DNA from: Candidatus Binataceae bacterium
GTDB lineage: Bacteria > Desulfobacterota > Binatia > Binatales > Binataceae
DNA length: 64,000 nt
Reading direction: 5' to 3'
Assembly (NCBI GenBank): GCA_035524095.1
Contig: DATKPK010000264.1
Location: forward strand, 10,546-74,545
The position numbers and the translations under genes are program-made. The notes beneath the pieces were generated by a model. It searched no databases and was not told the DNA's origin. It saw only the letters and a list, made by a program, of their open reading frames with translations. This document shows positions 5,037 through 51,802 of this stretch, one piece after another (within the stretch, counting starts at the first letter, position 1; each line of letters starts with the position of its first letter).

Positions 5037-6191
5037 CTAGTTCAACCCTGGGATCAAGCCGCATTCATAACGTTCGCGCCATCGATTTGCGCCAAAACCA
5101 TGACCGAGCAGGACAAAGATCCTTACTTCGCGAGAAACTTTATGGCCGTCGGACACCTTATAGCCAGGATTTCTCAGTAACGAAGAATCGCGCTCCCGCA
5201 ACAGACCTTCGGTCAATTTGCGATGGCGTTTGGCATATCCTTGCTTGGTCAATTCGCCGGTCAGCATGCGACGCTGCGCGCTCTCGACCATAGCGAGACC
5301 TCGGGCGCGATCAGCGCAAAGCGAGTCCACCATCTCGCGCATGGCGTCCGGTGAACCCAACGGAACAAAAGCGATCTCGTCATCAGAGAAATAAGCACGT
5401 AGTCCTCCGGTATCTGTGGCGACGACCGGCAGACCTGAAATGGTCCCTTCAAAAATCACTGTGATTCCTGAGGCGTGGCGATTGTACTTGAGTGGCACGA
5501 CCACGAGATCTGCCCATTGATAGACTTGGCGGACATCTGTCTCGGTCTGCGCTTTAGCCAGTCGGACATTTGAAACATTACGCAACTGCCGTTGAGTCAC
5601 TTGCCGGGACGCGATCATTAATTCGTATTCACTTCGTCCCCCGAAAGCGCGCAGCAAGGTTTTCCAATCGCGATGCATGTCGTTTCCTAGCGCGGCTATC
5701 CTTACAGGGCGATGAATGGGATCTCCGCGCGGTTCAATCATCCATTCGACTGCTCCGCCTGACAAGACGCACGCGGTTGGACGATTCGGAAAAAGAGTGC
5801 GGGCCGCATCAAAGTCTTCAGGTGACTGTGTAGTAATGATGTCCGCATACTTTAGCAAGTAGCGATACAACGCGCGTTTGACCGTTGAGAAATTGCTCCA
5901 ACTGTCGAACAGCCAAACGCATTGAGCCAGCAGTTTCGGCACTGGTGGGTGGCTAAGAGAAAGAATAACGGAGGCTGCCAGATGCTCGCGCTCAGTATGG
6001 GTCCACACGACGTCAGCCGCTCGCAAGGCTTCGCGGTTTCGCCAGGCGTGGAGGAGGTCAAATCCCAGAAGCCGTCCCAGCATTCGACGAAATAGCTCAG
6101 CGAGGAGACTCTCCTCTCCGTCTTCTGAACAAAGGATAGACCATCCGCCGCCTTGGGCGTAGTGATAGCCGTATGGTAAATACGTTTTCAC
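5037..6191 (-). CDS. Glycosyltransferase family 4 (GT-B)
   Basis: GT4 C-terminal domain (..GITVIFEGTISGLPVVATDTGGLRAYF..); 384 aa. Confidence 0.8.
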   Translation of the reverse strand: MKTYLPYGYHYAQGGGWSILCSEDGEESLLAELFRRMLGRLLGFDLLHAWRNREALRAADVVWTHTEREHLAASVILSLSHPPVPKLLAQCVWLFDSWSNFSTVKRALYRYLLKYADIITTQSPEDFDAARTLFPNRPTACVLSGGAVEWMIEPRGDPIHRPVRIAALGNDMHRDWKTLLRAFGGRSEYELMIASRQVTQRQLRNVSNVRLAKAQTETDVRQVYQWADLVVVPLKYNRHASGITVIFEGTISGLPVVATDTGGLRAYFSDDEIAFVPLGSPDAMREMVDSLCADRARGLAMVESAQRRMLTGELTKQGYAKRHRKLTEGLLRERDSSLLRNPGYKVSDGHKVSREVRIFVLLGHGFGANRWRERYECGLIPGLN

Positions 6192-6226: not shown

Positions 6227-7690
6227 TCAGATGCGTCGGTAAACTGTGTTGAGCGAGGCCGGGTCAAAATCTAGAACAGGCGAGTCGTCGGGCCTCGCGG
6301 CTTCAAAACCCGTTGGTGCAGGCCATCTTTGACGGATTGAAGCTATTAGGATGCCCCACAACAGCCACAAGACTGGATCGCTGATTTCGGCGCCTGACTC
6401 AACGAGTGCGAGCAAATGGGCGGCGAAAGCCACTGCAAATGCGCGATGACAGATTGTTGCAGAGGCTTGTGCGGGGACTGCGCTTTGAACTACACGGCTC
6501 ATTCTGACTAAAGAATACATCAGCCAAGAGAAAAGCAGTACTCCCGCCAGCCCTAGATTGCTCATAATATAAGCCGCCATACTCATCGCTCGGTCGGAGC
6601 CTAATCCAGCGCCAAGCCCGTAGGTGGCCATGAGAGTGTCAAAGCTCCGAGCCACGGTAGCCATACGATGTAGTGACGAGCCCGACTGAGCTTTGTCGAG
6701 AAGGACATCGGAAAGAAGAACTCGGCCTTCGTAGGTTATCAGACACGCAACGGTTACAGCGATCGCAAGCAAGCCGATAGTCGCGATGATTAAAGCAGAG
6801 CCACGCTTTGCTGATAAGTCGATTAATTGACGCCAAAACATCCAGAGCAGTACGACCGCGGTCGTGATGTAGCCAGTCGTCGAAGTAGTACCAATCACCA
6901 CCACGATTCCGGCAAGACCAAAGGCCAAATGCAGCCAACGGCGCCCATCGTGACTGGATGCCAGAGCTAATTCGAAGCCTACCCAAGCCGAGAGAAAAGA
7001 TCCCGCCCCGGAGGATTCGTCAAAGGTTGCGCTGATGCGTGTAGCTCCGTTCAAGTCTTGGCTGGTAAGCTGAGCCCATGCCGGATTACTGTTGAAGAGC
7101 TCTCGTGGAAAAGGCAGTCCGCAATGGCGAGCGACGAACTGATAAGCACCGACCGCGACAACTATTAGGCCTGACAAACAGAACCTCGTGCAAAAGGCTT
7201 GCATGTCTGCAGGGGTTCGACTCGCTTCGACCAAATGAAAAACAACGATTAGATCGAGCAGCAGGTAGCCGGCTTGGCCAGCGTTGCTCAGACTCCAGTG
7301 CAATGGTAGGCGCGTATAGTAAGTGGCATCGGGACCGGCGCGGCCCAGGTCAACTGGCAGGCCGCGAAAGAGGATTGGAAGAATGAATGCCGACAAAACT
7401 GCCCATCCAACAAATGCAGTCACTATCTGAAGGTAGACACGAAGCGGCACGCTCAATCGGACATTCAGTCCATAGTTCAGCCATCTTGGAATCGAGTGAA
7501 GCGCGATCAGAAGAGCGATAAAATAGAAAGGGGCTATTCCCACTGGAAAAGTTCCGCCGCTCAGACTGAATACAGAAGCGGCTGCGAAGACCGCGGCTAT
7601 GATCGCGACTTGCGCGAGTTTATGGGGAGCGAAGAAAAAAAACGCGAGCCCTATAGGTACTAGCGCGATTCCGCTCGGTGGAATTGCCAT
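6227..7690 (-). CDS. O-antigen ligase/polymerase family membrane protein (Wzy-like)
   Basis: 487 aa polytopic membrane protein (more than 10 hydrophobic helices) with a large loop. Sits where the polymerase is found in Wzx/Wzy loci. Confidence 0.55.
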   Translation of the reverse strand: MAIPPSGIALVPIGLAFFFFAPHKLAQVAIIAAVFAAASVFSLSGGTFPVGIAPFYFIALLIALHSIPRWLNYGLNVRLSVPLRVYLQIVTAFVGWAVLSAFILPILFRGLPVDLGRAGPDATYYTRLPLHWSLSNAGQAGYLLLDLIVVFHLVEASRTPADMQAFCTRFCLSGLIVVAVGAYQFVARHCGLPFPRELFNSNPAWAQLTSQDLNGATRISATFDESSGAGSFLSAWVGFELALASSHDGRRWLHLAFGLAGIVVVIGTTSTTGYITTAVVLLWMFWRQLIDLSAKRGSALIIATIGLLAIAVTVACLITYEGRVLLSDVLLDKAQSGSSLHRMATVARSFDTLMATYGLGAGLGSDRAMSMAAYIMSNLGLAGVLLFSWLMYSLVRMSRVVQSAVPAQASATICHRAFAVAFAAHLLALVESGAEISDPVLWLLWGILIASIRQRWPAPTGFEAARPDDSPVLDFDPASLNTVYRRI

Positions 7691-7781
7691 ATCAGAAAGT
7701 AAGGAGCGATATCGGAATTTGCTGATGGGTCTAAGGAAAGCTCAAGCAGTCGCTACCGGAACACCAGCTTGGCGGCTCCCA

Positions 7782-8978
7782 TCAAGTTAGCCATCCGCCA
7801 ACAACTACTCGGCGTGCGGCATTCAATACTGAGTCTATCTGGATTTCCGCCATGCAACGCCCGTAATCAGGATTGGCGCAGCGAGTGGGCACTATATTAC
7901 GATAGCTGTCGACGCAGGGACTGCATTGCGCAGTGGTTTCGTAAACATGCGTTACCCTTGTGCCTGCTGGTGCCCATTGCTCGGCTGAAGTTGCACCGAA
8001 GAGACCGACAGTTGGCGTGCCCATGGCCGCGCCGAGGTGCATCACGCCCGTGTCGTTGCTTACCAGCAAATCGCATTCCTTCAAAACGCTGGCTGTCATA
8101 GTGATTGAATCCAGTCCAGTTCCGTCGATGCTTGGACCCTTGTAAATCGATCGGAACTGAGCAAGCAGCGCACGCTCATGAGGTTGACCGGTCAGGATAA
8201 TCGCCGGGTTGGGATCGCAATGTGAAAACCCGTCGGCCAATGAGGCAAAGTTGAGGAGTGGCCAACGCTTGAAGGGTTGACCACTGCCGCATCCAAGATG
8301 AAAGGCAATCTTGCGCGCCCGCGGATTTGTCACTCGACTCATCAGCCATGAGCGGCCCGCGCGGAGTTGTTCTTCAGACAAGGGTAACGGCAGGGGTACA
8401 AGCAAATCTGGCAGGCGCCTATCGATTAGCCGAGCGATTGCGAGGAATGATTGCCACATCGAAACCCCGCCACGAAAGCCGATCGCGTGGGTCAGAAACC
8501 GTATCTTGGCTCTAGATTCATTGCCTACAAAACCGATTCGAGTCGGAATACCGGTAGCGTGAAGAAAACCACTGCCGGCGAGGGAAGCCTGCTCGAAGTT
8601 TACCAATGCATCGTAAGAGCAAGCTCTGATTTCATGGAGTGTTCGCAAGGCCGAGCGGAGCGTTAGATTCTTTTGACTATATCGATGAAGACGGAAATTA
8701 CCGCCAACCGCGAGCACCTCTTCTGTCGCATCACCGGCCAGGATGCCTAGCGAGAGCGATTCATTTCGACATCGAAGATGTTCGATTGCCGATCGCACCA
8801 AAACAGCGTCGCCCATGCCGTGTACCTTTACGACTAGCAATCGGGAAGGAGGCGATGGCAAGGGCTGTCCCATTACGACCCTAGGAGACAAGGGTAAATT
8901 CCGGAGAAGGCGCTCACAGGTGTGTGTGAGCCACGGCCTGCGGCCAGCTACCAACGGACTTGAGGCAAAACTCCTCAA
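7782..8978 (-). CDS. Glycosyltransferase family 9 (heptosyltransferase-like)
   Basis: GT9 N-terminal motif LVVKVHGMGDAVLVRSAIEHL and C-terminal ..LVSNDTGVMHLGAAMGTPTVGLFGATS... Overlaps the downstream sugar transferase by 4 bp. Confidence 0.8.
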   Translation of the reverse strand: MRSFASSPLVAGRRPWLTHTCERLLRNLPLSPRVVMGQPLPSPPSRLLVVKVHGMGDAVLVRSAIEHLRCRNESLSLGILAGDATEEVLAVGGNFRLHRYSQKNLTLRSALRTLHEIRACSYDALVNFEQASLAGSGFLHATGIPTRIGFVGNESRAKIRFLTHAIGFRGGVSMWQSFLAIARLIDRRLPDLLVPLPLPLSEEQLRAGRSWLMSRVTNPRARKIAFHLGCGSGQPFKRWPLLNFASLADGFSHCDPNPAIILTGQPHERALLAQFRSIYKGPSIDGTGLDSITMTASVLKECDLLVSNDTGVMHLGAAMGTPTVGLFGATSAEQWAPAGTRVTHVYETTAQCSPCVDSYRNIVPTRCANPDYGRCMAEIQIDSVLNAARRVVVGGWLT

Positions 8979-13504: not shown

Positions 13505-15037
13505 TCACAACGAAAATGCGTGACGTGTGGAGGCCGCCAATTCTCGAATTTGCTTTCGTATCAAAGGGATCGACAGTGAGGCAGCGCCGAAAGCGAGCAC
13601 TCCATTCAAAAGAGCCAGCGATAGAATTCCCATTCGCGTGGTAACCGTGAAACTAAATCTAGCGACAAGGCAGCTCACGACGACGCAGGCGAACAGCGGA
13701 ATAGCTAAATCATGGAGATACCAGCGTAGGCATTCTCGGCTAAGAAAGCGACGATGCATCAGTTGGACCTGAGTCACTAGGTAACTCACGTTGATCAGAA
13801 GCCAAACGGCGGCGGCGCCTGAACTTCCAAAGCGCGCCGTCAATAGCAACAATAGGGGCACGGTAACGAAAGCCGATGCTAAATTCGTCCAGAAGGCGAT
13901 GGCTGTACAGCCATACGCGAGTTGCAAGGCGTACGGTATACTGACAATACAATTAAAGGCCGTGCCAGCCGTCAAAAGCGAAGCTGCCAGCCAAGTATGC
14001 GCTGCAGTTTGCTGGCTCCCGGTCCATGCGAAGACGAGCTGCCTGGCCAGAAAAATAAAAGTCGTCGCAGCAGGTAAAACTAGGATCGAAATAACTTGCG
14101 CAGCATGGTGATAAATCTCCGTCAGCCTGGGCGTGTCCTGGGCCGTGACGTGACGAGCGAAGGCAGGAAAGAGAGCGGTGAAGACCGGTGTGGAAACGAG
14201 ATAGAGACTCCCCGCGATTTGCCAAGCCAGACTGTAGTATCCGAACGCCTCCAATGAGAGTTGCTTGCTGATGACGATCTTATCTAGTTCCGTCAGTACC
14301 ATTGAGACTATGGTCACCGCAGTGACACCGCCGGCAAAGCGGCGGATGCTGCGGATAAGGCTGAGCCGAGGGATTGGCTTAGACCCCGCGGGCAAACAAT
14401 GCCACAGCAAAACTGCAAGAATGACAGTTTGTATGCTGTTGATTATTAGTTGCCAGGCGAAAAAAGCCCACGTCGTAGGGGACGCCAAAAGGATCACGAC
14501 AGCGGCGCCTAAGTTCCGGGTCGCGGTAAAAAATAGCGATATCCACGAGAGCAATACCTGGCGTTCGAGGCCACTGAGGCCTCCTCCGTAAAAGCTCATC
14601 GGCCATCGAGAGAAAATCAAAAAGCCAATCAAGACTACAACCGAGCGCAAACTGCTCTCCGCAACCGTATTACTGTGAAGCCAGCTCCTAGCAAGAACGG
14701 GTGCGGCTAGCACAATCACTCCGGCCAATATTGCTCCGATGCTCCAATAGCCGAGCTCTAATGTACGGACTAGATCGCGAATATGATCGGCGTTTCCGGC
14801 TTTGCGCGACGAAGCTGCCATTTCGCGAGTTATAGTTGAACTGAGACCAAAGTCTAGAAGATTGGCGAAGGTCTCCAGCAACGCCCAGACACCGATTAGA
14901 CCATAGCCGCTCACGCCGAGAACCCGCAGAAAGATCGGTACACAAGCAAGATTAACTAGGCCTGATAGAATTCTCGATATAAGGTTGGCGGAAAGATTCC
15001 GCCGGACTGAAGTAATTCCGAAAGTTGAAAACCGCAT
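13505..15037 (-). CDS. wzx: Oligosaccharide flippase (Wzx; MOP superfamily polysaccharide biosynthesis protein)
   Basis: 510 aa with about 12-14 TM helices. The N-terminus is typical of Wzx/RfbX flippases (LISRILSGLVNLACVPIFLRVLGVSGYGLIGVW..). Confidence 0.75.
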   Translation of the reverse strand: MRFSTFGITSVRRNLSANLISRILSGLVNLACVPIFLRVLGVSGYGLIGVWALLETFANLLDFGLSSTITREMAASSRKAGNADHIRDLVRTLELGYWSIGAILAGVIVLAAPVLARSWLHSNTVAESSLRSVVVLIGFLIFSRWPMSFYGGGLSGLERQVLLSWISLFFTATRNLGAAVVILLASPTTWAFFAWQLIINSIQTVILAVLLWHCLPAGSKPIPRLSLIRSIRRFAGGVTAVTIVSMVLTELDKIVISKQLSLEAFGYYSLAWQIAGSLYLVSTPVFTALFPAFARHVTAQDTPRLTEIYHHAAQVISILVLPAATTFIFLARQLVFAWTGSQQTAAHTWLAASLLTAGTAFNCIVSIPYALQLAYGCTAIAFWTNLASAFVTVPLLLLLTARFGSSGAAAVWLLINVSYLVTQVQLMHRRFLSRECLRWYLHDLAIPLFACVVVSCLVARFSFTVTTRMGILSLALLNGVLAFGAASLSIPLIRKQIRELAASTRHAFSL

Positions 15038-18334: not shown

Positions 18335-19498
18335 TTATGGGATCGGTATCGCGAGCCCCGGCGAAAAGCGGCCCAGGATGGAGTAGACTGCATAAGGAAC
18401 CGCGCCGACAACCGAGCGATCGACTATTACAACATCGCCAGCTTCAAGCGGTATGTCGGGCGACGCTCCTGACCGGATCGCTGATAGATTAACTGACAGC
18501 TTGGCTCTTTGGTTTCCCGAGCCTGAACGGAGAATCCTGGCGTTCGAGCTGAAAAGTGCCCCTCCTGCAGCCGCGATCGCACCTAATACGGTCATTCCGG
18601 GGGTGAGATTTACTGCGCCTGGGGTGTTGACCCATCCTTCAACCGTAACGTTCCCAGCGACGGGCACGATTACGGTATCCCCAGGCCGCGCAGGCAGCTC
18701 GAGGCAGCGGCGCTCGTTATCATCATGCATGTTCATAACGATCGGCGAGGGTACCCCATCGGTATGCGACGCCGGCGCAAGTAATTCACCATCAGATGAA
18801 TCACTGTGAATGGGCGTGTCGCCCTTTACACTGCGCCCGGAGGTCTCGGGAGACGCCTTAATGGAATAGGTACTCGAAGCGGAGAGACCGCCTATACGCA
18901 GGCCGGGCCGCCATGCCGACCCTGGAATGAACAAGACACGCTGAGACGCATCATCGCGTAGGCCTCCCGCTTCCGCAATCGTGTCCATAATCGTTTCGTT
19001 CTGGCTCGAAAGAACAATCAAACCGGGTTTATTCACCAGGCCCATTACGCGGACGGTGCGGCTCTTATCTTCTTCGTTGAAAACGCTCACTTCGGGATTA
19101 CGAATGTACTTGCTGAGCCGCCGTTCGAGTTCGCGCTCAAGATCATCGTCGGTCATATGCGTCACGGAAACAGTTCCGGCAAAAGGAAAGGCAATCGTGC
19201 TATCGCCGCTCACGCGCACCTCAAGTTTCTCCAACTGATCGACACCCACGACGGTGATGCGGAGCAAGTCACCTGGACCAATCGGGTAGTCGGTTTGACT
19301 GATCTGAGAGCTGCGGCTGTTCCAGAGTTGTCGAAATTCGGACGAAGTCCGGCAGTCTGATATGGAGCTCGCTACATCGGCAGCCGGTGGCAGATAGGAT
19401 GACTCATCTCTCAATGCAGATTGGCCGTTGGCAGTACGGCAAATCAACGACTCAACAGCAGCGAATAGTAGAAACAAAGGCAGAATAAGCCTAGCCAT
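18335..19498 (-). CDS. wza: Polysaccharide export protein (Wza/OPX family)
   Basis: Signal peptide (MARLILPLFLLFAAVESL). PES motif region (IGPGDLLRITVVG..) and SLBB repeats typical of OPX exporters. First gene of the operon. Confidence 0.85.
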   Translation of the reverse strand: MARLILPLFLLFAAVESLICRTANGQSALRDESSYLPPAADVASSISDCRTSSEFRQLWNSRSSQISQTDYPIGPGDLLRITVVGVDQLEKLEVRVSGDSTIAFPFAGTVSVTHMTDDDLERELERRLSKYIRNPEVSVFNEEDKSRTVRVMGLVNKPGLIVLSSQNETIMDTIAEAGGLRDDASQRVLFIPGSAWRPGLRIGGLSASSTYSIKASPETSGRSVKGDTPIHSDSSDGELLAPASHTDGVPSPIVMNMHDDNERRCLELPARPGDTVIVPVAGNVTVEGWVNTPGAVNLTPGMTVLGAIAAAGGALFSSNARILRSGSGNQRAKLSVNLSAIRSGASPDIPLEAGDVVIVDRSVVGAVPYAVYSILGRFSPGLAIPIP

Positions 19499-20761
19499 CG
19501 GAGTAAGTAGTCTTGAGAGGATAGTGGTAGTACGCTGCCAGATTCGATTCAGTTGTTATCGTTGACTATCGATCCACGCGTCCGCCATCCCAGAGCTGTT
19601 GGGTAATCGAGCGGTGGTCCGATTCCGGCGCTTCAGGAGCTGCGAAAGACGACTACGCGCGGAATCATCGAGCGAGATTCATATTTACTCAACATGGCCG
19701 ATCTTCAACAAGATAGAGCCACGCTACTTCGTGTAGGATAGGTCCGGCAAAGGGTGAAGAACGCGAAGCGTGCAGCAGGTTCAACTGCTATTTTGCAACT
19801 CGATCGGGAATAGCGACCTTAAGCTGAGCCTTCAATACGATGTTAAGTTGTTGTCAATACTGTGCTTTGAGGTGAGTTACAATTTAACCTTGCCTGGAGA
19901 CACACCGTCATGGAGATCGTCGTGACTCGAACGATTCGGAGAGGTTGCATGCGATCTAGATGACGGAATCGTACGGATGCGATCCGAACTGGACGAAATG
20001 ATCGGCCCTTAATGATTGATTAGTCGAGCAAAGGAGTCTTGAATGCAAGATTAATCCGATTTGGCATGTCTGAGGTCGGTTTAGAGGAGACTAGCTTGTG
20101 CGCGGAATGACTCCTCCGCAAACTATCGCGTGTCGATCATCAGCCGAGGCTTGGTTCATCGAACTTTCATCATAAAAACCACCGGAAATTTGCCACTAGC
20201 ATCTGGCCAATAAACGTCAGTACTCCGTATAGTGGCGTCGTGACTATGTCTCTCAACGCGATCCCAGTCCGTGACCTTTCAAGTTGCGTTGCTGCGGATC
20301 GGCCACGCTCATCTGAATCTGCTCAGCGACTATGTCTCGAAGCGACACATAGTCGTCCGACGAGTCGTCTCACCTGACTATCGCTCTCCTTGAACAGCGC
20401 TAAGGGCTTCTCGAGCCCTCGGCCGTCTTTGTTTCGGCTATCTTCGCCGCGAAGGTTCGTAGGACCTCGCAGCAGAATTCCATCGAGACAGCGAAAGCCG
20501 ATTCTACAGTCTTTGGAAGGTTGCATGATTCACGACAAACCGAGGCAGGCAGTGAGTCAATTAGGTACAGACTCTGTGCTTTAGCCAGATGAGTCAAAGA
20601 CGGCTGATGAGTTGATCCCTTCTAGGAGGAGACGCTCAAAACGGCGACAACGACCAGCGCGAATCTGGTATCGGGTTTGCTCACGATCTTTCTCTTCGTG
20701 ACAGACGCTCGCGTCAGTCATTAGTCAATGAGCGATCGGTCAACGAGCGTTTCGCTGAGGA
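19499..20761. promoter_or_regulatory. 1.26 kb lower-GC non-coding divergent-promoter/leader region between wza and the regulator gene, with a repeated motif array
   Basis: The six-frame track shows no ORF above 67 aa here. TGACTATCG/TGACTATGTCTCTC-type copies sit at about 19563, 20241, 20327 and 20375. An inverted copy at about 20344-20355 forms a 9-10 bp hairpin with the 20327 copy. A GACGAGTCGTC palindrome lies at about 20359-20369. Confidence 0.6.
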
Positions 20762-21961
20762 GTGAAGGTACAAAGTAGTATGGAGCCTTTCGCGCGTATC
20801 GCACTTGGTAGAGGAGCTCCCGCCGAACTCGCACACCGCTTGGCGGCGATCGGTCTCGAATCGGTGCCGGAACGCAACTGGCATCTGGCCGACTTCGCGG
20901 TTGAGTTCGATGGCGAGGTGGGGCAGCGCAACACTGGAGTACCGATAGCCCGGATCGCGATGCGCGCCATCCCTAACGATGCGCTGCCCGCTGATTTCGC
21001 TTCGCCGAGCGTTCATGCTGTGGCTTGCTTCATTCTTTCCCGGGCGCTTTGCCTATCTGCGCCTTTTCTCACTGCTGAGGCGAGCGTGTTCGAAGTCGTT
21101 CGCTCAGTGCTAACACTGACGCGCGGACCGGCGCGCTTGGTGATTGAAGGTGAGACTGGGGTGGGTAAGCAAGCGCTAATTCGTATTGTCTTGGCCGCGG
21201 CAGGCACCGGCCAAATTGTGCGCGTCGATTGTGCTTCGTTTGACGAGGCTTCCGCCGACAAAGAATTTTCAGCGGCGATTAAAGTCCTCGCGGGCACTGG
21301 TTCCGATGTCATATCAGGGGAAGCCGCCCACGGCGGGATTCTCTTCCTCAATCGGGTCGACGAATTACCACTTTCGGCTCAGCGGCGATTACTCAACGGG
21401 ATCCATTCCGCGCCGGTGATACGCCCGCGTATCCGTTACCTTGCAACCTCAACGCAACCGCTTGGCGATCTAATGGCGCGCGGGTTGTTCGTTCCTGAAC
21501 TGCACAATCTCTTCGAGGTCGCAGTTGCGCTTTCGCCATTGCGCGAGCGTCCTGCAGACGTGGCGATGTTGGCTTCGTATTTTCTGCGCAATACCAATCC
21601 TGCGCTGGCATTGAGTGGCGGAGCTCTCAAAACTCTGACCGACTATCCTTTTCCGGGTAATGTCCGTGAGCTGCAAAATCTGATTACCAGACTCGCGATT
21701 GTGCCGCTGGCTTCCGAGAACACGGTCATTGGACGTCCGGACATCCTGGGTCAGTTAGTAGCCTCCAGTACTGGACGCCTGCGTTCGGTGCCGCAGATGG
21801 GGCGTACGGCGCCCCGCGCGCGGCCACGATCTAACGTAGTCGGACCGCCCGCCGCTGCTGGTCCAGCCGGAACGCGTAACAAAGAGAATTCTCCGTTGCG
21901 GCTGACCCCGTCTACTGTTCGGCGTCCGCCTAAGCCGCCCAACGATCCTCGTCTCAGCTGA
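20762..21961 (+). CDS. Atypical sigma54-interaction-domain (NtrC-family AAA+) regulator-like protein; GAFTGA loop degenerate, no receiver domain, no HTH
   Basis: Walker A (EGETGVGKQALIR), Walker B (GGILFLNRVDELPL), arginine finger region and sensor II (FPGNVRELQNLI) are present. The ESELFGHEKGAFTGA region is replaced by ..SADKEFSAAIKVLAGTGSDVISGEAA... The C-terminal 80 aa are Pro/Arg-rich and disordered-looking. The start may instead be the ATG at 20780 (MEPFARI..), which has a GGAG-like RBS. Confidence 0.7.
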   Translation: MKVQSSMEPFARIALGRGAPAELAHRLAAIGLESVPERNWHLADFAVEFDGEVGQRNTGVPIARIAMRAIPNDALPADFASPSVHAVACFILSRALCLSAPFLTAEASVFEVVRSVLTLTRGPARLVIEGETGVGKQALIRIVLAAAGTGQIVRVDCASFDEASADKEFSAAIKVLAGTGSDVISGEAAHGGILFLNRVDELPLSAQRRLLNGIHSAPVIRPRIRYLATSTQPLGDLMARGLFVPELHNLFEVAVALSPLRERPADVAMLASYFLRNTNPALALSGGALKTLTDYPFPGNVRELQNLITRLAIVPLASENTVIGRPDILGQLVASSTGRLRSVPQMGRTAPRARPRSNVVGPPAAAGPAGTRNKENSPLRLTPSTVRRPPKPPNDPRLS

Positions 21962-22142
21962 AACACGAATCATTGTTCAGACCTTCAGTCAAGCTTATAA
22001 TTTGCGAAAGTATTACGATTTAGTTTATAAATCTTGAATTCCTCAACCTCGAGCGCTCTGATTAAGGAATGACGCAGGCTGCCCTTGGCGGCACCAAACG
22101 CGTTCAACCCCGCCGGAGGCCGTCTCTATAGAACAAACCGAG

Positions 22143-22370
22143 GTGCAAACAACGGATAGGAAGCGGCGAGCAACTCGTTCGACCCACTGGCTATTCAACT
22201 TAGGCATCGCTATCGCGATGGCCGGACTGGCAGGGTGTGCAGCGGCTCCAGCAACGCCCCCATCGCAACGAATTGCACTGGTCACGCCTCAAAACACTCA
22301 AACTCCCAACACCGAAAGCTGGGCGAGGCTTCACAACAGTACCAGTTATTCGTGGACAAACTGGTTCTGA
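22143..22370 (+). CDS. Candidate small lipoprotein (75 aa)
   Basis: GTG start. n-region with KRR, hydrophobic h-region and lipobox LAGC (MQTTDRKRRATRSTHWLFNLGIAIAMAGLAG-C). Lies in a 470-bp convergent intergenic gap. No homology was recognised. Confidence 0.3.
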   Translation: MQTTDRKRRATRSTHWLFNLGIAIAMAGLAGCAAAPATPPSQRIALVTPQNTQTPNTESWARLHNSTSYSWTNWF

Positions 22371-22433
22371 AGATAAAGCTGGCAGCCGCGATCATCGCAG
22401 CCGCCCGCCAGCTGAACAGGCATAGGCTCGGCG

Positions 22434-23564
22434 CTAATTCAGCGCGTAATAGCGCTTGGCTCCCCCGGCCAGTACGTTAGCCTCAATCGCAGGCGGCATC
22501 CCCATTGCCTTGATCATTTTGGGCGCGTCGGGAAAGCCATCCAAATGCGGATAGTCGGTCGCCCAAAGGATGTTGTCTGAACCGATGTAGTCGGCGAGCA
22601 ACGGCAAAGAGCCCTCGACCGGCTCGAATGAGATAAAGCATTGGCGCCGGAATATCTCAGACGGCCGGGTGTTAAGCCGGGTATCATTCATGCCTTGATC
22701 GTCGAAATGACGATCCATCCGGTCGAGCCATCCCGCCATCCAGCCGCCGCCGGACTCCAGCAATGCGATTCTGAGGTTCGGAAAGCGATCGCAGACGCCG
22801 CACATGATTAGGCTGGTCGCCGCAGCCATCATCTCGAATGTATGCGCTACGCAATGCCGTACCGCACCGCCGCGAGTGAAACGATCCATCCCCAGCGTCG
22901 GCTGGCCGCTTTCAGAACCGCCGTGAATCCCTATCCCGAACCCTAGCGCCTGAGCCTGTTCCCATAACGGGTCGTTGGCGGGGTCATGCAACGCCCGCCC
23001 GTTATAAGGATTCGGGCGAATGAAACCGGCACGGAAGCCCAGTTCGTTGACTGCGAAATCCATTTCCTCGATGGCGTACTCCACGCTTTGCATCGGCAGC
23101 ATCGCCGCGCCGAACAGCCGCTCTGGATACGAATGACAATAGTCTGCGAGCCAGCGATTGTAGGCACGGCAGGCGGCTGCGGCAAATACTGGCTCTTTGA
23201 TCGAACCCAGGAACAGCCCCAGGCTTGGATAGAGGAAGGCCGCATCGACGCCCTCGGCATCCATGTCCGGGATGCGCGCGTGCGGATCGAAGCCGCCTTT
23301 CCGGCCTTCGCTATAAGGCATCTTCGGAGAGGTTTTGCCGTCGCGTGATCCATAGGCGCCGACAGCGCCGAAGCTGACGCGTTTCTTACCACGACTCAAG
23401 TCAACCGCGTCGTCGTACTCGACGCGAAAGATTTCAGCGCCATTCTCGAGTACGATCAGCTTGGGGCATCCTTCGCGGAACTTGGGCTCCATGTAGCGTT
23501 CCCACAAATCGGGTGGCTCGAGGATGTGCCCATCCGCGTCGATGACGTTGTAGGTTTGGGCCAT
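22434..23564 (-). CDS. Amidohydrolase-2 family metal-dependent hydrolase (ACMSD-like)
   Basis: MAQTYNVIDADGHILEP.. N-terminus (His-x-His metal site) and ..WATDYPHLDG.. C-terminal motif. Start moved to the internal ATG at 23564, which has a GAGGTG RBS. The track ORF extends to 23627. Confidence 0.8.
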   Translation of the reverse strand: MAQTYNVIDADGHILEPPDLWERYMEPKFREGCPKLIVLENGAEIFRVEYDDAVDLSRGKKRVSFGAVGAYGSRDGKTSPKMPYSEGRKGGFDPHARIPDMDAEGVDAAFLYPSLGLFLGSIKEPVFAAAACRAYNRWLADYCHSYPERLFGAAMLPMQSVEYAIEEMDFAVNELGFRAGFIRPNPYNGRALHDPANDPLWEQAQALGFGIGIHGGSESGQPTLGMDRFTRGGAVRHCVAHTFEMMAAATSLIMCGVCDRFPNLRIALLESGGGWMAGWLDRMDRHFDDQGMNDTRLNTRPSEIFRRQCFISFEPVEGSLPLLADYIGSDNILWATDYPHLDGFPDAPKMIKAMGMPPAIEANVLAGGAKRYYALN

Positions 23565-23818
23565 AGCGCACACCTCTGCATTCTTGAATTTGATAGAATC
23601 AAAGCACAGCGGCATTCGTCCCGACAAGCCGTCAACCTCGCTTGGGGCCTGACATTCCTTTCCCGGCTCGGATCGAAGGGAATCGTTCGCCGACGTTACT
23701 CGAGGACCAGGGAAGACGGAGGGTCATCCTCTGGCGCAATCTGCGCGACGCATGATAACAGAATTGGTTCGCGGCAAAGCCAGTCACAGGCGATAGCGAT
23801 GCTGCAGGAGTTTGAAGT

Positions 23819-24601
23819 ATGAGCCTCAGGCTTGATGGGAAGAACGCTCTGATAACTGGAGCCGCGAGCGGTATCGGCCGCGCCTCCGCGATCCGCTTTG
23901 CCGAAGAGGGCGCGAATGTCGCGGTTGCGGATCGCAATCAATCTGCCGCTGAAGAAACGTCCGCCGAGGTGCGCAAACTTGGCCGTAAAGGGATCGCACT
24001 CGAGGTAGACGTGAGCGATCCCGCGCAAGTCAATGCGATGGTCGAGCGAACCCTCAAAGAACTCGGCGGAGTAGATGTCCTGCTGGCCGCCGCTGGCGTC
24101 TCACATGCTCGCTACGGCGAGGGTCAAGTCAAGCACAAGCTGCTGCATGAGTTATCTTTTGAGGAATGGCGCCGCCTGATGGCGATCAACCTTGACGGCT
24201 GCTTTTTGACCTGTCAGGCAGTGGCTCGCGAGATGATAAAGCAGAATCGCGGCGGACGCATCATCGCGATCGCCTCAGGAGCAGCCAAGGTTCCTATCAA
24301 AGGATCGGGCGAATACGCAGTCAGCAAGGCGGGCGTGTGGATGCTGATGAAAAACATGGCGCTCGAACTCGGCCGTTACAACATCACGGCCAACGCGATC
24401 GGTCCAGGCGTGATCGATACGCCGATGACTAAGGATCTGCAGAGCAGTCGCAATTTCGAGAGGATGATCGGCCAGGTTCCTCTGCGCCGGATGGGTCAGC
24501 CGGTCGATGTCGCCAATACGGCTTTATTTCTCGCTAGTGAGGAAGGCCGCTACTTCACCGGTTCGATTCTCCATCCCGATGGCGGCTTTGTCATGCAGTA
24601 A
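23819..24601 (+). CDS. SDR-family oxidoreductase (FabG-like)
   Basis: ALITGAASGIGRASAIRFAEEGANVAV, NAA..G motif and YxxxK catalytic region (YAVSKAG). Confidence 0.85.
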   Translation: MSLRLDGKNALITGAASGIGRASAIRFAEEGANVAVADRNQSAAEETSAEVRKLGRKGIALEVDVSDPAQVNAMVERTLKELGGVDVLLAAAGVSHARYGEGQVKHKLLHELSFEEWRRLMAINLDGCFLTCQAVAREMIKQNRGGRIIAIASGAAKVPIKGSGEYAVSKAGVWMLMKNMALELGRYNITANAIGPGVIDTPMTKDLQSSRNFERMIGQVPLRRMGQPVDVANTALFLASEEGRYFTGSILHPDGGFVMQ

Positions 24602-24642
24602 AATGAGCGCCTCGAAATCCGTTTCCGCACAGCGGAATAAGA

Positions 24643-25140
24643 ATGGAGTGTAGTTATTTGCCATTGAAGCGGTGGGCCCGACTCATTGTAGCTATCAGCC
24701 TGATAGCGCTGATCGGCCTCGTGATTCCGGCGGGTGGTCGCGCTGTTGCCCAAGACATGAACATGGATTCCAGTGACTCGGGCAGCATGATGCTGCCGCC
24801 ACCGGGAGCCGGGTCAGCACCGAATCCAACGCAACCACCGCCGATGCAGCCGATGCGCATTATGCAGCCGATTACCGGCTCGATGGCGGTGGCGCCGCCG
24901 TATGGAGTTGCGCCCTTGAAGGTCGGCTTCTTTGTGTTAGCGAACGATCCCGAAGGAATTGGCTTTCTTACGTATTCATGGAATTTCGGCGACGGCACCG
25001 TCTCGTCGTTACCGCCCGAACTGTATATCTTCCACACCTATAATAGTGCAGGAACCTATGTCTGTACGCTGACGATCAAGACGGTTGACGGTCGCTCAAA
25101 GACCTTCGTCCAGGGTGTAGACGTCCAGGCGCCTGCTTGA
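24643..25140 (+). CDS. Secreted PKD-domain protein
   Basis: Signal peptide/TM and a Pro/Met-rich linker. PKD signature ..YSWNFGDGTVS..HTYNSAGTYVCTLTIKTVDG... Confidence 0.7.
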   Translation: MECSYLPLKRWARLIVAISLIALIGLVIPAGGRAVAQDMNMDSSDSGSMMLPPPGAGSAPNPTQPPPMQPMRIMQPITGSMAVAPPYGVAPLKVGFFVLANDPEGIGFLTYSWNFGDGTVSSLPPELYIFHTYNSAGTYVCTLTIKTVDGRSKTFVQGVDVQAPA

Positions 25141-25145
25141 ACGCG

Positions 25146-25862
25146 CTAGAACTTTTCTTTGAAGGGCCGCACTTCGAGCTCCATCGTCCAAGCACTGCGG
25201 TCCTGATGAGCCAGGTGCCAGTAAGTCTCGGCAATCGCATCCGGCTTGAGTAAGTCTTCGTCTTTGACGTTCGGCAGACGCTCGCGCAGACGTGGCAAGT
25301 CTATGATGCCATCAACATTGATCCACGCTACGTGAATGCCCTTTGGACCGAGGTCGCGGGCGAGCGCCTGCGCTAAGCCGCGCATCGCGAACTTCGCGGG
25401 CCCAAACGCGACCGATTTCGGCCCAGCCTTAACCCCGGCGGTCGCGCCAGTAAAGAGCATTACGCCATGGCCCCCCGCGATCATCGGAGAGGCGACTTCC
25501 TTCGCCGCGATGAATGCTCCGTAACTGTTCACGCGCCAGCTGGTCTCGAATTGCTCGGGCGAAATCTCCAGAACAGAGCCCCAGGTCCCGGAACCGGCGT
25601 TGTAGAGCAATACTTCAGGATCACCAAGGCGATCGCGGATTTGGCGGAAGGCCGCTTTGAGTTGCACGCTATCGCCGACGTCCGCCGGTACGGCAAGCGC
25701 AAGTTCACCTGAGGCTTTGACATCGTTCGCTAGCGACCTTAGGTAATCGCCGCTACGGGCGACCATCGCGACGTTGTATTGCTTGGCGAAGCGGCGTACT
25801 AGCGCGGCGCCGAGCCCTGGTCCGACTCCGGTAACAACTGCTACGGGCTTGCTCTCAGCCAT
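25146..25862 (-). CDS. SDR-family oxidoreductase, paralogue of 1455-2177
   Basis: 238 aa, collinear with the 1455-2177 protein and roughly 50% identical by eye (AVVTGVGPGLGAAL.., ..HQDRSAWTMELEVRPFKEKF). Confidence 0.8.
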   Translation of the reverse strand: MAESKPVAVVTGVGPGLGAALVRRFAKQYNVAMVARSGDYLRSLANDVKASGELALAVPADVGDSVQLKAAFRQIRDRLGDPEVLLYNAGSGTWGSVLEISPEQFETSWRVNSYGAFIAAKEVASPMIAGGHGVMLFTGATAGVKAGPKSVAFGPAKFAMRGLAQALARDLGPKGIHVAWINVDGIIDLPRLRERLPNVKDEDLLKPDAIAETYWHLAHQDRSAWTMELEVRPFKEKF

Positions 25863-25938
25863 TCTCTCCTCACTTCAGGCGCACCCTCTTACGAGCGTGC
25901 GCTTGGTTTCCCTCTAAGATCTACCCGCCGACCCGGCG

Positions 25939-26640
25939 TCAGTTTCCGGCGATAGGCAGAACGGTCACCTTTCCGCTTGCCAATGCATAGCGTGCCGCAA
26001 CGATCTTTAGCTGGCCGCTCTTTACCAATGGCGCAAATGAGGTCTCAGCAGCAAGCTGTTTCGCGATCAACTCGGCATTAACGTTGATCGCATTGTTCAG
26101 AAGATCGCCGCTCATCCCCTTGGCCTCTCGCACCGCTGGATAGATATTCTTCAACATCGTGCCCGCCATCCGCTCAGGATACGAGCTAATCGCCGCTTTG
26201 ACCGCGCCGCACTGATCGTGACCCATCACAACAATCAGCCGTACGCCCAGATGCATGACCGAATAGGCCAGGCTTTCCAACACAAGGTTGTTGTAGGTAT
26301 TGCCCGCGACCCGTGAGACGAAAATCGTCCCAATCCCTTGATCAAAGATAATCTCAGGCGGAACCCGCGAATCTGAGCAGGATAAGATCGCCGCAATCGG
26401 ATGCTGATCCGCCGCCGACGGTCGCTGATCCGGATGTTCCGCAGCGTTACTCACATAGCGCCGGTTGCCATCGAGCAGTTGTTGCAGGGCCTTGTCCGGC
26501 GGAACCGACGGCGCTGATGCGTCAGGCAGCGCTGAAGTTGCGACCCCCATTACCATTACCAGCGAAAGTACCGAACCCAAAATTCCAACTAGCATCATGC
26601 CTCGCGTCCGTCTCACGACTTGTTTCCGATAATCACCCAT
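25939..26640 (-). CDS. Beta-class carbonic anhydrase with N-terminal signal/anchor
   Basis: CSDSRVPPE and GHDQCGAV zinc-ligand motifs; N-terminal hydrophobic segment. Confidence 0.85.
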   Translation of the reverse strand: MGDYRKQVVRRTRGMMLVGILGSVLSLVMVMGVATSALPDASAPSVPPDKALQQLLDGNRRYVSNAAEHPDQRPSAADQHPIAAILSCSDSRVPPEIIFDQGIGTIFVSRVAGNTYNNLVLESLAYSVMHLGVRLIVVMGHDQCGAVKAAISSYPERMAGTMLKNIYPAVREAKGMSGDLLNNAINVNAELIAKQLAAETSFAPLVKSGQLKIVAARYALASGKVTVLPIAGN

Positions 26641-26691
26641 CAGCCTTAACCCCCCTGTACCATCTCACTGAAAGTAGCCGACCCGCGCACG

Positions 26692-27231
26692 GTGAGCCAA
26701 CAATTGACTCAGTGCGGCCCGTTTCCGCTAACCTGTAAGAGCATGCGGACGCCGATATCTCAGCGGATGGCTTCGATCGTTTTGTTGACCGTCGTTGCTC
26801 TCACAGGATGCATGCAGAATCAAATTGACGCCAACAATCGTCAACTTGAGGCTGAGCAAACTGAACTGGATCAGCTCAGACAGCAGGTAAAGGTCCTACA
26901 GAACCAGAGCGGTCAAGGTTCCTACACAACTCCGCCGATCGCCCCCAATGCTTGCGACTCCGATGTGATGAAAGACGCCACCCGTAAGGGTGGTGAGCGG
27001 ATGGCTTCGGGCAATCCCGCGGACGCGGTTGGTTACTATCAGGACGCGGTGACCGCGTGCCCGGGCAGTGCCGAGGCACAGCTCAACCTCGCCCATGCTT
27101 ATGAGATCACCGGTGACAATCCTGCCGCCCTTCAGCACTATCGGCTGGCCGCCGCCGCATCGGGACCGAATGCCAATCCCGCAGCCGTAAAGAAGGCTCG
27201 CGACGCCATTACTCGCTTGAGCTCCTCCTAA
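26692..27231 (+). CDS. Lipoprotein with coiled-coil and TPR-like repeat
   Basis: Lipobox ALTGC after a hydrophobic stretch; Q/L-rich coiled coil; TPR-like AEAQLNLAHAYEITGDNPAALQHY. The start may be the internal Met (MRTPISQRMASIVLL). Confidence 0.55.
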   Translation: MSQQLTQCGPFPLTCKSMRTPISQRMASIVLLTVVALTGCMQNQIDANNRQLEAEQTELDQLRQQVKVLQNQSGQGSYTTPPIAPNACDSDVMKDATRKGGERMASGNPADAVGYYQDAVTACPGSAEAQLNLAHAYEITGDNPAALQHYRLAAAASGPNANPAAVKKARDAITRLSSS

Positions 27232-35060: not shown

Positions 35061-35546
35061 GTGGCGATAGTGTTGCAGTTGAGTCCGGTTGCAAAAAAGG
35101 TTGCAGAAACGCTTGAGCCCCATATCGAACGGCAGGGATATGAGTTGGTCGGCGTTGAGTATCGCAAGGGCACTCGGAGTTCGCTCCTGCGCCTGCTGGT
35201 GGACAAGCCAGAAGGCGGAATTGCGCTGAGCGACCTCGAAGTTCTGAGCCCGATGCTCGGCGATCTGCTTGACGTCTATGACCCGGTCGAAGGACGCTAC
35301 ACACTTGAGGTCTCTTCACCCGGAATCAACCGGCCACTGACTAAACTCGACCACTTCCAGGCTCATCGGGGGCGCCGCGTAAAAATTCGGTCTTACCAGC
35401 CGCGCGCAGGGCGCAAGGTTTTTGTTGGCATTCTGGCGGCGGCTGATGCGGGCGGCGTCGAAGTCGAGGAAGAAAACACTCACACCCGGGAGAGATTTTC
35501 ATTCGGCGAAATCCAGGCGGCGAACTACGAGCATAAATTCGACTGA
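35061..35546 (+). CDS. rimP: Ribosome maturation factor RimP
   Basis: ..GYELVGVEY..LLRLLVDKPEG.. and ..YTLEVSSPGINRPL.. motifs. Sits immediately upstream of nusA. Confidence 0.85.
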   Translation: MAIVLQLSPVAKKVAETLEPHIERQGYELVGVEYRKGTRSSLLRLLVDKPEGGIALSDLEVLSPMLGDLLDVYDPVEGRYTLEVSSPGINRPLTKLDHFQAHRGRRVKIRSYQPRAGRKVFVGILAAADAGGVEVEEENTHTRERFSFGEIQAANYEHKFD

Positions 35547-35632
35547 GTTCCAACGTAAACCGAAGGCGGTCCCATTAACAATGGGATGCCAAAACGGTAG
35601 CGGCGCGGTCATCCGCGCTTTCGGAGGGTGAA

Positions 35633-37066
35633 ATGGCGGTCGATCTGAATCGCGTAATTGATCAGGTTTCCAAAGAAAAAGGCATCGACAAAGCGATCGT
35701 GGTAAGCGCGATCGAAGAGATGATGCATTCGGCGGCGCGCCGCACCTTTGGCCAGGATCGCAATATCGAGTCCCGCTACAACCCCGATCTCGGCGAAGTC
35801 GAATTATTCGAGATCAAAACGGTCGTCAGCCATGTCACCAACGCTGCATCCGAAGTTGATGTCGAAGAAGCGCATAAGCGCTACGATCCCGAGGCCCAGG
35901 CCGGCGACGAAATCCTGATCAAGCTTGATACCGCCACGATGGGCCGAATCGCTGCGCAGGCGGCGAAGCAAAACCTCATCCAGCATATCCGCGACGCCGA
36001 GCGCAAGCAGATTTATAACGAGTTCAAGGATCGAAAGAGCGAAGTCGTCTCCGGCATCGTGCAGCGTTTCGAGCGCAAGAACATGATCGTTAACCTTGGC
36101 CGTACCGAGGCGATTCTGCCTGAAAAAGAGCAGATTCCGCACGAACGCTATCGTCAGGGCGACCGTATTCGTGCCCTGATTCTTGACGTCGACCTCTCTG
36201 AAAAGGGACTCGCGATTATTCTATCGCGCACCTCGAACCTCTTCCTCATGAAATTGTTCGAGCAGGAAGTTCCAGAAATCTACGAAGGAATCGTCGAGAT
36301 TCGGCAATGCGCCCGTGAGCCCGGAGGCCGCGCCAAGGTCGCAGTGTATTCCAAGGATAACGACGTCGATCCGGTCGGTGCATGCGTTGGCATGAAGGGT
36401 ACGCGCGTCCAGTCGGTCGTGCAGGAGTTGCGTGGCGAAAAGATCGATATCGTCCCGTGGACCGATGATCAGGCAGAGCTAGTATGCCGAGCGCTGGCTC
36501 CTGCAAAAGTCTCTAAGGTCATAATCGATGAGGACGAGCATGCGATGGAAGTGATCGTCCCTGATGATCAGCTTTCACTCGCGATCGGCAAGCGCGGCCA
36601 GAACGTACGCCTCGCCCATCGCCTATCCGGATGGAAACTCGACGTGCGCAGCGATTCTGAAGCCGAAGAAGAGGCGCGCGCCGCTCGAGCTTCGCTCAAC
36701 GCGATCCCCGGTATTGGCGACATCAACGCCGAACTGCTCTACCAATGGGGCTATCGTTCGGCCGAGCAGTTGTCTGAAGCCGACGAGGAAAACTTCGAGG
36801 TCGAAGGTATCAGCCCTGAACGCGCGCGCCAGGTGGTCCATGCCGCCCGCGAGTGGGTCGAGACCAAACGCACGCGCGCGCTGGCCGCCGCCGCTGACGA
36901 GGAAATTGAGGATGGGAACGGCGAGGTCGCGAATGAAAACGAAGTCGAAGAATTAGAAGCTAGTGAGGGAGCATCGCTGCCGGACGATGCGGGCGAATCC
37001 GATTCAGCGGACGGTGAGCATTTGGCATCCGAGACCGATAGCGCCAACGGCGCCGTAACCAAGTGA
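35633..37066 (+). CDS. nusA: Transcription termination/antitermination factor NusA
   Basis: N-terminal domain, S1 and KH domains (..GACVGMKGTRVQSVVQELRGEKIDIV..) and an acidic C-terminal tail. Confidence 0.95.
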   Translation: MAVDLNRVIDQVSKEKGIDKAIVVSAIEEMMHSAARRTFGQDRNIESRYNPDLGEVELFEIKTVVSHVTNAASEVDVEEAHKRYDPEAQAGDEILIKLDTATMGRIAAQAAKQNLIQHIRDAERKQIYNEFKDRKSEVVSGIVQRFERKNMIVNLGRTEAILPEKEQIPHERYRQGDRIRALILDVDLSEKGLAIILSRTSNLFLMKLFEQEVPEIYEGIVEIRQCAREPGGRAKVAVYSKDNDVDPVGACVGMKGTRVQSVVQELRGEKIDIVPWTDDQAELVCRALAPAKVSKVIIDEDEHAMEVIVPDDQLSLAIGKRGQNVRLAHRLSGWKLDVRSDSEAEEEARAARASLNAIPGIGDINAELLYQWGYRSAEQLSEADEENFEVEGISPERARQVVHAAREWVETKRTRALAAAADEEIEDGNGEVANENEVEELEASEGASLPDDAGESDSADGEHLASETDSANGAVTK

Positions 37067-51585: not shown

Positions 51586-51802
51586 CGTCCATCTCCCTCA
51601 CACGCTTCGATGACGTGGCCGAGTTTATGCCACGATTCGCGCAGGATATAAACTCTAAGGGTCGGCGAAATAGCATTGGGGCGGAACCAACACGGAAATC
51701 TGCAAGGGATGTTTCACGTGAAACATCTCTTGCAGATTTCTTGTTCTATTTTGGGAGCGGTTCCTTCGCTGTTGGGGAAGAATTTCCCCCGGAGCAAGCC
51801 TG

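Follow-up and report, generated by a model that had tools for sequence, protein, structure and literature searches.

What is encoded between a polysaccharide export gene and a divergent regulator-like gene when more than a kilobase of non-coding DNA separates them: one long leader, or the control regions of two genes? The question arises in a 64,000-nucleotide (nt) stretch of contig DATKPK010000264.1 from a Candidatus Binataceae bacterium (the whole stretch is referred to here as the window). On its minus strand lies a wza-like gene (18335–19498), followed after a gap of 1281 nt (19499–20779) by a plus-strand gene (20780–21961) for a degenerate protein resembling bacterial enhancer-binding proteins (EBPs). 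The first-pass annotation of this DNA had treated the gap as a 1.26 kb wza leader with an array of TGACTATGTCTC-type motifs and a hairpin. Comparison with related loci leads us to a different interpretation, in which the gap is a divergent intergenic region composed of two independent cis-regulatory modules, one for each gene, joined by approximately 290 nt of unconstrained spacer. We put the probability of this reading at roughly 0.7.

The description of the gap as non-coding and poorer in GC than its surroundings is borne out, with no conserved open reading frame (ORF) between the two genes and a GC content of ~0.47–0.53 over most of the gap, compared with 0.55–0.62 in the flanks. An all-against-all comparison of six-frame stop-to-stop ORFs from six orthologous regions gave no conserved peptide, and the ORF matches were confined to DNA-conserved blocks, in mixed frames and on both strands. 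The interval as first delimited is real, except for its right end, which had been placed at GTG 20762; the start codon of the EBP-like gene is taken to be ATG 20780, because all homologues begin with MEPFAR. No intrinsic terminators were found. A covariance search in both orientations, as had been proposed, matched no Rfam family: between 19000 and 21300, on both strands and at E ≤ 10, the best matches were to snoRNA models with E values of 4–9, none of them credible.

Modular structure of the intergenic region

The comparison set comprises about 15 related loci, assembled from protein searches, contig look-ups and a metagenome pattern scan. Orthologous loci obtained by the protein searches encode EBP-like proteins with 59–86% identity and Wza proteins with 61–73% identity to those of the window, and the pattern scan added two loci where the EBP-like protein is only 39–42% identical. 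A scan of GTDB species representatives with the EBP-like protein gave no close relative, the top identity being 35%. Four contigs from the same strain (L013–L016) are 100% identical to the window across the 1281-nt gap, making five copies in all, which are for this reason uninformative on constraint. One of them, L014, encodes an EBP-like protein with a single amino-acid difference (7541–8719; 99.7% identity) next to an unchanged intergenic region.

Conservation detectable by BLAST is restricted to three segments, 19562–19888, 20176–20230 and 20502–20779. The segments between them, 19889–20175 and 20231–20501, are not conserved; the former is the spacer between the modules and resembles none of the orthologous intergenic regions at the level of BLAST, and the latter is the site of the motif cluster that had first drawn attention. 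On the wza side, a module that is predicted to hold the leader and promoter region (19499–19890, minus strand) could be aligned over ~390 nt in seven wza loci, L030 included, and positions 19562–19888 are 68–75% identical in nucleotide sequence to L024, L031 and L032. On the other side, the module 20180–20779 (plus strand) is best described as the control region of the EBP-like gene, with a well-supported predicted sigma-54 promoter.

The two modules occur apart in both directions. L030 has wza, its leader and a 13-nt element of that leader, GGCGGACGCGTGG, and lacks an adjoining EBP-like gene, as well as the conserved elements of the EBP-like side that are described below (block 1, the dyad and the sigma-54 site). 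Conversely, L018, L021/L022, L026 and L027 have the EBP-like gene and all three of these elements, and have neither wza nor the 13-mer, which is absent from all loci with the EBP-like gene only. It is on these grounds that we see the motif cluster as part of what controls the EBP-like gene and not as part of the wza leader. The left neighbours of the EBP-like gene differ in the wza-less loci (NUDIX, Kelch). To its right, most relatives retain the gene block found in the window at 21962–27231 and in L017–L023, which encodes amidohydrolase_2, SDR, a PKD-domain protein, a second SDR, a beta-carbonic anhydrase and a TPR protein. Since the right-hand block is kept and the left neighbour varies, the EBP-like gene goes with the former and not with the exopolysaccharide (EPS) locus.

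A single wza 5' leader spanning the whole 1.26 kb, with the TGACTATGTCTC-type repeats serving as operators for the adjacent EBP-like protein, would agree with the clustering of the motif copies beyond chance, and with the recurrence of the divergent gene pair in six lineages (the window, L019, L024, L029, L031 and L032). Very long leaders bearing an ops element do exist, as in the 1.6 kb leader of hlyCABD (PMC6775461). Such a leader is nevertheless difficult to reconcile with the finding that the cluster and its hairpin, the dyad and block 1 accompany the EBP-like gene also where wza is elsewhere (L018, L021, L026 and L027), and are absent upstream of wza in L030. Moreover, the 14-mer copies are not conserved, the ~290 nt between the modules are unconstrained, and the EBP-like protein has no recognisable DNA-binding domain. 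The comparative data thus appear to have largely refuted the single leader already, and we regard it as very improbable. What stands of the first proposal is its more general part, namely that the region is regulatory and adjoins a capsule/EPS operon.

Control region of the EBP-like gene

The protein encoded here is made up of a REC-like domain, an AAA+ domain (partial Pfam matches to Sigma54_activat and AAA_lid_14) and a disordered Pro/Arg tail. Its Walker A motif is intact (GETGVGKQ). In the Walker B motif, which reads LNRVDEL, the Asp-Glu pair is changed to NR, and the GAFTGA loop is replaced by VLAGTG. Across the family the Walker B pair is NR, DR or DQ, and GAFTGA does not occur. In the close family, the C-terminal helix-turn-helix (HTH) is replaced by the tail, which is conserved and ends with RRPPKPPNxPR, while homologues at 37–42% identity keep an HTH of the Fis type. 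An AlphaFold2 model of the protein has a pLDDT of 76, and Foldseek gives full-length structural matches to NtrC1, VpsR, LuxO, FleQ and NtrX. With Walker A present, and the Walker B Asp-Glu, GAFTGA and HTH all missing, the protein falls outside the bacterial EBPs proper. It shares the REC-like and AAA+ architecture, the full-length structural match and the association with an EPS locus with VpsR and FleQ, atypical EBPs of exopolysaccharide genes, but these two bind DNA, whereas the protein of the window lacks the three features just named. It seems hardly able to activate sigma-54, or to bind operators by itself. The earlier suggestion that the intergenic region holds operator sites for this very protein is therefore unlikely.

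The gene for this degenerate protein is preceded by a sigma-54-type promoter sequence, TGGTATCGGGTTTGCT (20666–20681, plus strand), with the GG and GC of the -24 and -12 elements at canonical spacing (TGGCACG-N4-TTGCW). It is the sole exact match to TGGYAYN5TTGCW in the 64 kb window. Each orthologous locus has exactly one such site in the corresponding position, in all 13 lineages and down to 39% protein identity, with the variants TGGTACCGGGTTTGCT in L029 and TGGTATCGCCCTTGCA in L026/L027. In the close family, it is located 108–121 nt upstream of the ATG, and the predicted 5' untranslated region (UTR) is itself conserved in an eight-locus alignment (20699–20779, plus strand), with the pattern TCGCGTCA..ATTAGTCA.TG.GCGATC followed by AGGAGTGAAGGTACAAAGTAGT. 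No sigma-54 promoter was found towards wza. Further upstream, a block resembling an upstream activator sequence (UAS), TGATT(T/C)(G/A)CGACAAACCGAGGC-N5-GTGAGTCAATTAG(A/G)TACA, which contains TGCGACAAACCGAGGC and GTGAGTCAATTAGATACA, occupies positions 20525–20569 on the plus strand and lies at a fixed 133–136 nt upstream of the -24 element in nine of 11 loci. Activator sites usually lie at about this distance (134 nt), and the block is a likely candidate for one. The EBP-like gene would accordingly be transcribed from the promoter at 20666–20681 in response to a true activator. An intact EBP encoded elsewhere would be needed for this, because the EBP-like protein is itself degenerate and yet its gene appears to be transcribed by sigma-54. 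Such an arrangement, a sigma-54 promoter driving the gene of a pseudo-EBP, suggests a regulatory cascade, or a decoy subunit. The spacing of the -24 and -12 elements and the conserved block about 110–150 nt upstream are as in sigma-54 promoters of the NtrC/NifA type with a UAS; the differences are that the regulated gene here encodes a degenerate EBP, and that an additional invariant block is present ~486 nt upstream.

This additional element, block 1, consists of 41 nt with the pattern CACCGGAAATTTGCC-N15-ATAAACGTCAG (20180–20220, plus strand). It is present in 11 of the 11 loci that reach far enough, including those where the protein homologue has only 39–42% identity, at 468–526 nt upstream of the sigma-54 site, and is more conserved than the protein that it accompanies. 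The spacer between its two invariant boxes is variable (13–15 nt). Its left edge coincides with a synteny break, and as distal boundary element it would mark the far end of the EBP-like module. In the metagenome scan, block 1 occurred solely upstream of EBP-like homologues, apart from one chance match (L028). No second copy is present in the window, and an att site or direct repeat was rejected as an explanation on this account. Comparisons with IHF sites and FleQ boxes gave partial matches only. Promoters for sigma-70, sigma-54, extracytoplasmic function (ECF) sigma factors, sigma-28 and sigma-32 were likewise considered and dismissed, as the spacing or the conservation pattern, judged against their consensus sequences, fits none of them.

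Downstream of block 1 lies the conserved core of the hairpin that the first-pass annotation had described. This core is the dyad ATGT-N11-ACAT (20332–20350, within the hairpin 20327–20355), which was compared in 11 loci and lies at a fixed 150–157 nt from the beginning of block 1. The half TGT is found in all 11, and ACA in eight, the other three having ACG, ATA and GCA. The distance from the dyad to the sigma-54 site is ~335 nt in the window and 311–376 nt across the loci. The theme is reminiscent of the sites recognised by NifA (TGT-N10-ACA) and TyrR (TGT-N12-ACA). A UAS of the NifA type would, however, have N10 and lie 100–200 nt upstream, whereas N11 occurs in all 11 loci. In L026 and L027, the dyad has the form TGTCGC-N5-GCGACA. 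The same two loci have a perfect palindrome, TGCGACA-N5-TGTCGCA, ~92 nt before the sigma-54 site, by which the HTH-bearing homologue could plausibly regulate its own gene. The half-site of this UAS is identical to that of the dyad, and GCGAC/GTCGC is enriched upstream of the EBP-like homologues in these loci (L026 5156–5376 and L027 1633–2174, minus strand; seven occurrences compared with 1.9 expected, P = 0.003). A GCGAC half-site common to dyad and UAS was also tried as a general feature and found not to be significant in the window family.

A protein-binding dyad is favoured over an RNA hairpin, because dyad and UAS share the enriched half-site in L026/L027. We give the protein-binding site an even chance, and if it is one, it would most likely be a second, distal site of the kind bound by a Fis-type HTH. 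An RNA hairpin is unlikely by comparison. It would fit equally well with the three changes in the core pairs, all of which affect the 3' arm and leave a G.U pair when read as plus-strand RNA. Overall, 76.6% of the dyad cells are paired, compared with 19–58% in slid controls, and the covariation score was reached by 28 of 500 shuffles. However, the inner pairs of the stem are C.A as frequently as U.G, RNAalifold finds no consensus structure for the region from block 1 to the dyad, and z-scores for single-sequence folding over these 145 nt are unremarkable (-1.8 to +0.9). What is conserved in the dyad is the TGT/ACA sequence and not the pairing.

The same observations bear on the possibility that an as yet unidentified sigma factor recognises block 1 as its promoter and directs a plus-strand transcript, either a small RNA or a long EBP-like leader that acts as RNA, with the hairpin 20327–20355 as its conserved feature. 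The two invariant boxes and their 13–15 nt spacer resemble -35 and -10 elements, the only two sigma-70-like matches of the consensus scan overlap block 1, and the hairpin follows at its fixed distance with the G.U-preserving changes and the elevated pairing just described. Against this, relative to the consensus sequences, the spacing is too short for sigma-70, the ECF spacing would be 25, and for sigma-28 the variation falls on the part corresponding to GCCGATAA and the spacing differs by 2–3. Neither the folding over 145 nt nor that of the local hairpin in the orthologues (z of -1.9 to +2.0) stands out, the inner pairs and the RNAalifold result speak against a conserved structure, and neither a terminator nor an Rfam match accompanies the supposed transcript. 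We find such a promoter unlikely, and prefer to see block 1 as a boundary element of the EBP-like module.

The repeats themselves are less regular than first described. The 14-mer TGACTATGTCTCTC was reported to recur at 20241 and 20327; it is exact at the former place (20241–20254, plus strand), its sole exact copy, and the sequence at the latter, CGACTATGTCTCGA, matches at 11 of 14 positions (three mismatches). Other details hold up, namely the variant copies TGACTATCGCTCTC (20375–20388, plus strand, two mismatches) and TGACTATCGATC (at 19563), the inverted copy (20342–20355) that pairs with the copy at 20327 to form a stem-loop with 13-nt arms of 92% complementarity, and the separate palindrome GACGAGTCGTC (20359–20369). 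The local fold of the stem-loop has a predicted energy of -21.3 kcal/mol and is strong in the window (z = -3.3). The sequence of the palindrome is not conserved, and several orthologues have a different small inverted repeat in its place. In the whole window, the 14-mer has seven matches with up to three mismatches compared with 3.4 expected, a number that is reached by five of 100 shuffles. Four of the seven fall within 150 nt; the cluster is therefore not due to chance, as the background rate does not account for it. The short core AGTCA/TGACT occurs six times in 20180–20779 compared with 0.97 expected (P about 0.006, mononucleotide shuffles).

Conservation of the copies in orthologous leaders, on which the first-pass annotation had staked its array, was not found. 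The exact 14-mer is not kept, and what survives is the TGT-N11-ACA core and, in part, the copy at 20375, which reads TGACTATCG in L024 and L029 and is matched by TGATCATC at the same place in L018, L019, L031 and L032. The array is thus mostly specific to this strain, and the direct TGACTATGTCTC-type copies are probably for the most part lineage-specific elaborations of a short AGTCA/GACTAT core. Whether the copies at 20241 and 19563 and the long hairpin stem serve any function, or arose neutrally when DNA was duplicated locally in this strain, we consider evenly balanced. They are absent from orthologues with 72–86% protein identity, the copies sit where conservation is lowest, only the window has a strong extended stem, and the five identical sampled populations say nothing on constraint. 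A purely neutral origin is harder to align with the enrichment of the AGTCA core in several orthologues, and with the positional conservation of the 20375 copy and the dyad core.

The wza leader and its ops-like element

The wza module probably serves the EPS operon headed by wza as promoter and as transcribed 5' leader, the latter being at least ~165 nt long. A candidate promoter of the sigma-70 type, CTTGTTG ... TGAGTAAATAT (TAAATAT), is located at 19681–19712 on the minus strand, with both boxes conserved in six to seven of the wza leaders; if used, it would give a 5' UTR of ~175 nt. Further upstream of wza, the seven-leader alignment contains the conserved blocks TCCTACACAAAGTAGC, TTCTTCAC and GAGTTGCAAAATAGCAG (19723–19801, minus strand), which could be activator sites or an alternative promoter. 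Within the leader, RNAalifold predicts two small helices. One is a 7-bp helix with the consensus TCGGCGC ... GCGCCGA and a loop of ~25 nt (19625–19663, minus strand), and the other a small hairpin, CCCA-N7-TGGG (19589–19603, minus strand; alignment columns 115–118 and 127–130), with 93% of its cells paired, one compensatory U-A and one U.G. For the two helices together, 93% of the cells are paired, compared with 30–40% in slid controls. Wherever only one side of a pair has changed in these helices, the result is G.U when read on the wza sense strand and on that strand alone, an argument for transcription of this stretch as wza leader RNA.

Directly downstream of the CCCA-N7-TGGG hairpin, which is a candidate pause hairpin, comes the 13-mer GGCGGACGCGTGG (19574–19586, wza sense, minus strand), ending 76 nt before the start codon of wza. 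All seven wza leaders share it without change, at Wza identities down to 61%. The 12 nt GGCGGACGCGTG within it (19575–19586, wza sense) match the E. coli ops sequence GGCGGTAGCGTG at 10 of 12 positions, the differences being T6 to A and A7 to C. The statement that no ops/JUMPStart element exists here is therefore wrong in part, and an antitermination-type element, which the first-pass annotation had also considered, is plausible. In the 12-nt ops, G2, T11 and G12 are the pause positions, and T6 is flipped out and read by RfaH (PMC5995543). The element of the window retains these pause positions as well as C3 and G8, and agrees with the elemental pause consensus (G-10, Y-1, G+1). With A in place of T6, it does not conform to the full RfaH-type ops consensus, GGCGGTAGnnTG. 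Its location is what would be expected for an ops, on the wza sense strand, in the predicted leader of a long operon, and downstream of conserved helices in all seven leaders. We tentatively propose that GGCGGACGCGTGG, coming immediately after the second of the two helices in the folded leader RNA, may function as an ops-type pause and recruitment site for a specialised elongation factor of the NusG family, or at least as a programmed pause, and could help RNA polymerase to read through the 17 kb operon.

Similar leaders are known from two groups of bacteria. In common with the RfaH/ops (JUMPStart) leaders of enterobacterial polysaccharide, haemolysin and conjugation operons, the wza leader has an invariant element of 12–13 nt on the non-template strand, a long untranslated leader and a long polysaccharide operon. 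It differs in having A/C for T6/A7, in the absence of the 39-bp JUMPStart context, and in its host, which is a member of the Binataceae and not of the Proteobacteria. The second parallel is with capsular polysaccharide leaders of Bacteroides, where a pause hairpin is followed by an ops-like pause (PMC11685472). The resemblance to this UpxY/opsX system lies in a small nascent-RNA hairpin before a consensus-type pause in a capsule leader, but the sequences are unrelated, and the Bacteroides NusG paralogue is the first gene of its operon, whereas here wza comes first and no paralogue is nearby.

Several observations weigh against the interpretation developed here, most of them on the wza side. 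Matches to ops at 10 or more of 12 positions number 12 in the window compared with 7.4 expected, and the resemblance is thus not significant by itself. The base that RfaH flips into its pocket, T6, is A in the element. A tblastn search with E. coli RfaH and NusG found no NusG/RfaH paralogue in the window or in the Binataceae loci; as positive control, the same search detected RfaH in the Marinobacter locus L008. A consensus scan called no sigma-70 promoter for wza. On the other side, rpoN was not seen among the scanned ORFs of the 64 kb window, the distances of the dyad (~335 nt) and of block 1 (~486 nt) from the sigma-54 promoter are unusually large for a UAS, and the G.U-preserving changes in the dyad would suit an RNA as well. 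Finally, we infer the promoters, the transcription start sites, the extent of the wza leader, the bound proteins and antitermination from sequence.

Some of these points have a counterpart in another explanation of the 13-mer, as the site of an RNA-binding regulator of the CsrA/RsmA kind, or as a DNA operator centred on the palindrome ACGCGT, and not as an elongation or pause site. CsrA-type control of EPS leaders is well known. The 13 nt contain GGA twice and a perfect 6-bp palindrome, and neither the modest statistics of the ops resemblance, nor the loss of T6, nor the lack of a local NusG paralogue would pose a difficulty. On the other hand, the element ends too far from the start codon (76 nt) to overlap with the ribosome-binding site, and invariance extends to all 13 positions, also to those that belong to neither GGA nor ACGCGT. 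Neither would such a site account for the match at G-10, Y-1 and G+1, and for a hairpin that ends 13 nt before the predicted pause position, as is the case for ops and opsX. We judge a CsrA-like or operator site to be somewhat unlikely, slightly more so than the ops-like function, for which our own confidence remains below even.

A more far-reaching scheme would join the unusual elements of both modules. Binataceae EPS operons would then rely on an ops-type read-through, with a pause at GGCGGACGCGTGG after the hairpin and a NusG paralogue whose pocket reads A6 and C7, and block 1 (GGAAATTTGCC-N15-ATAAACGTCA) would be recognised by a regulator or sigma factor not described so far, tied to degenerate, sigma-54-transcribed pseudo-EBPs since before their divergence to 39% identity. 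As a whole, this scheme is doubtful, and less probable than the ops-like function on its own. In other respects the region is of an ordinary type, with two divergent bacterial control regions made up of regulatory DNA of known kinds, where the ops-like element is a plausible candidate, and the 41-nt block 1 is strongly conserved without explanation. Several of its strongly conserved elements are new for this uncultured soil lineage. Binatia, and within them the Binataceae, are widespread in soil and sediment and uncultured, and a search of the literature on them turned up surveys of metagenome-assembled genomes only, with nothing on gene regulation; conserved cis-elements are now defined for them. 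If the ops-like site in the EPS leader is what it appears to be, it would widen the known range of recruitment signals for NusG paralogues to an uncultured phylum.

Genomic context

The wza-like gene is identified by the Pfam domains Poly_export and SLBB, and its product has sub-threshold NCBIfam matches to PEP-CTERM/EpsE exporters. In sequence, this Wza is identical to a protein annotated in a metagenome-assembled genome of Candidatus Binataceae. It is the head of a ~17 kb EPS operon on the minus strand, where it is followed by genes for Wzz/GNVR, a nucleoside triphosphate (NTP) transferase, a flippase and glycosyltransferases. The Marinobacter bryozoorum locus L008 contains a GGCGGNNGCGTG site and a homologue of E. 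coli RfaH with 38% identity (5586–5597 and ~14100–14560). Elsewhere in the window, the rimP-nusA operon begins at 35061–37066, a housekeeping context that is unrelated to the gap. An inverted pair, TGAAACATCCCTTGCA / TGAAACATCTCTTGCA, at 51701–51734 resembles a palindromic operator and lies between the minus-strand genes 50608–51585 and 51803–52957.

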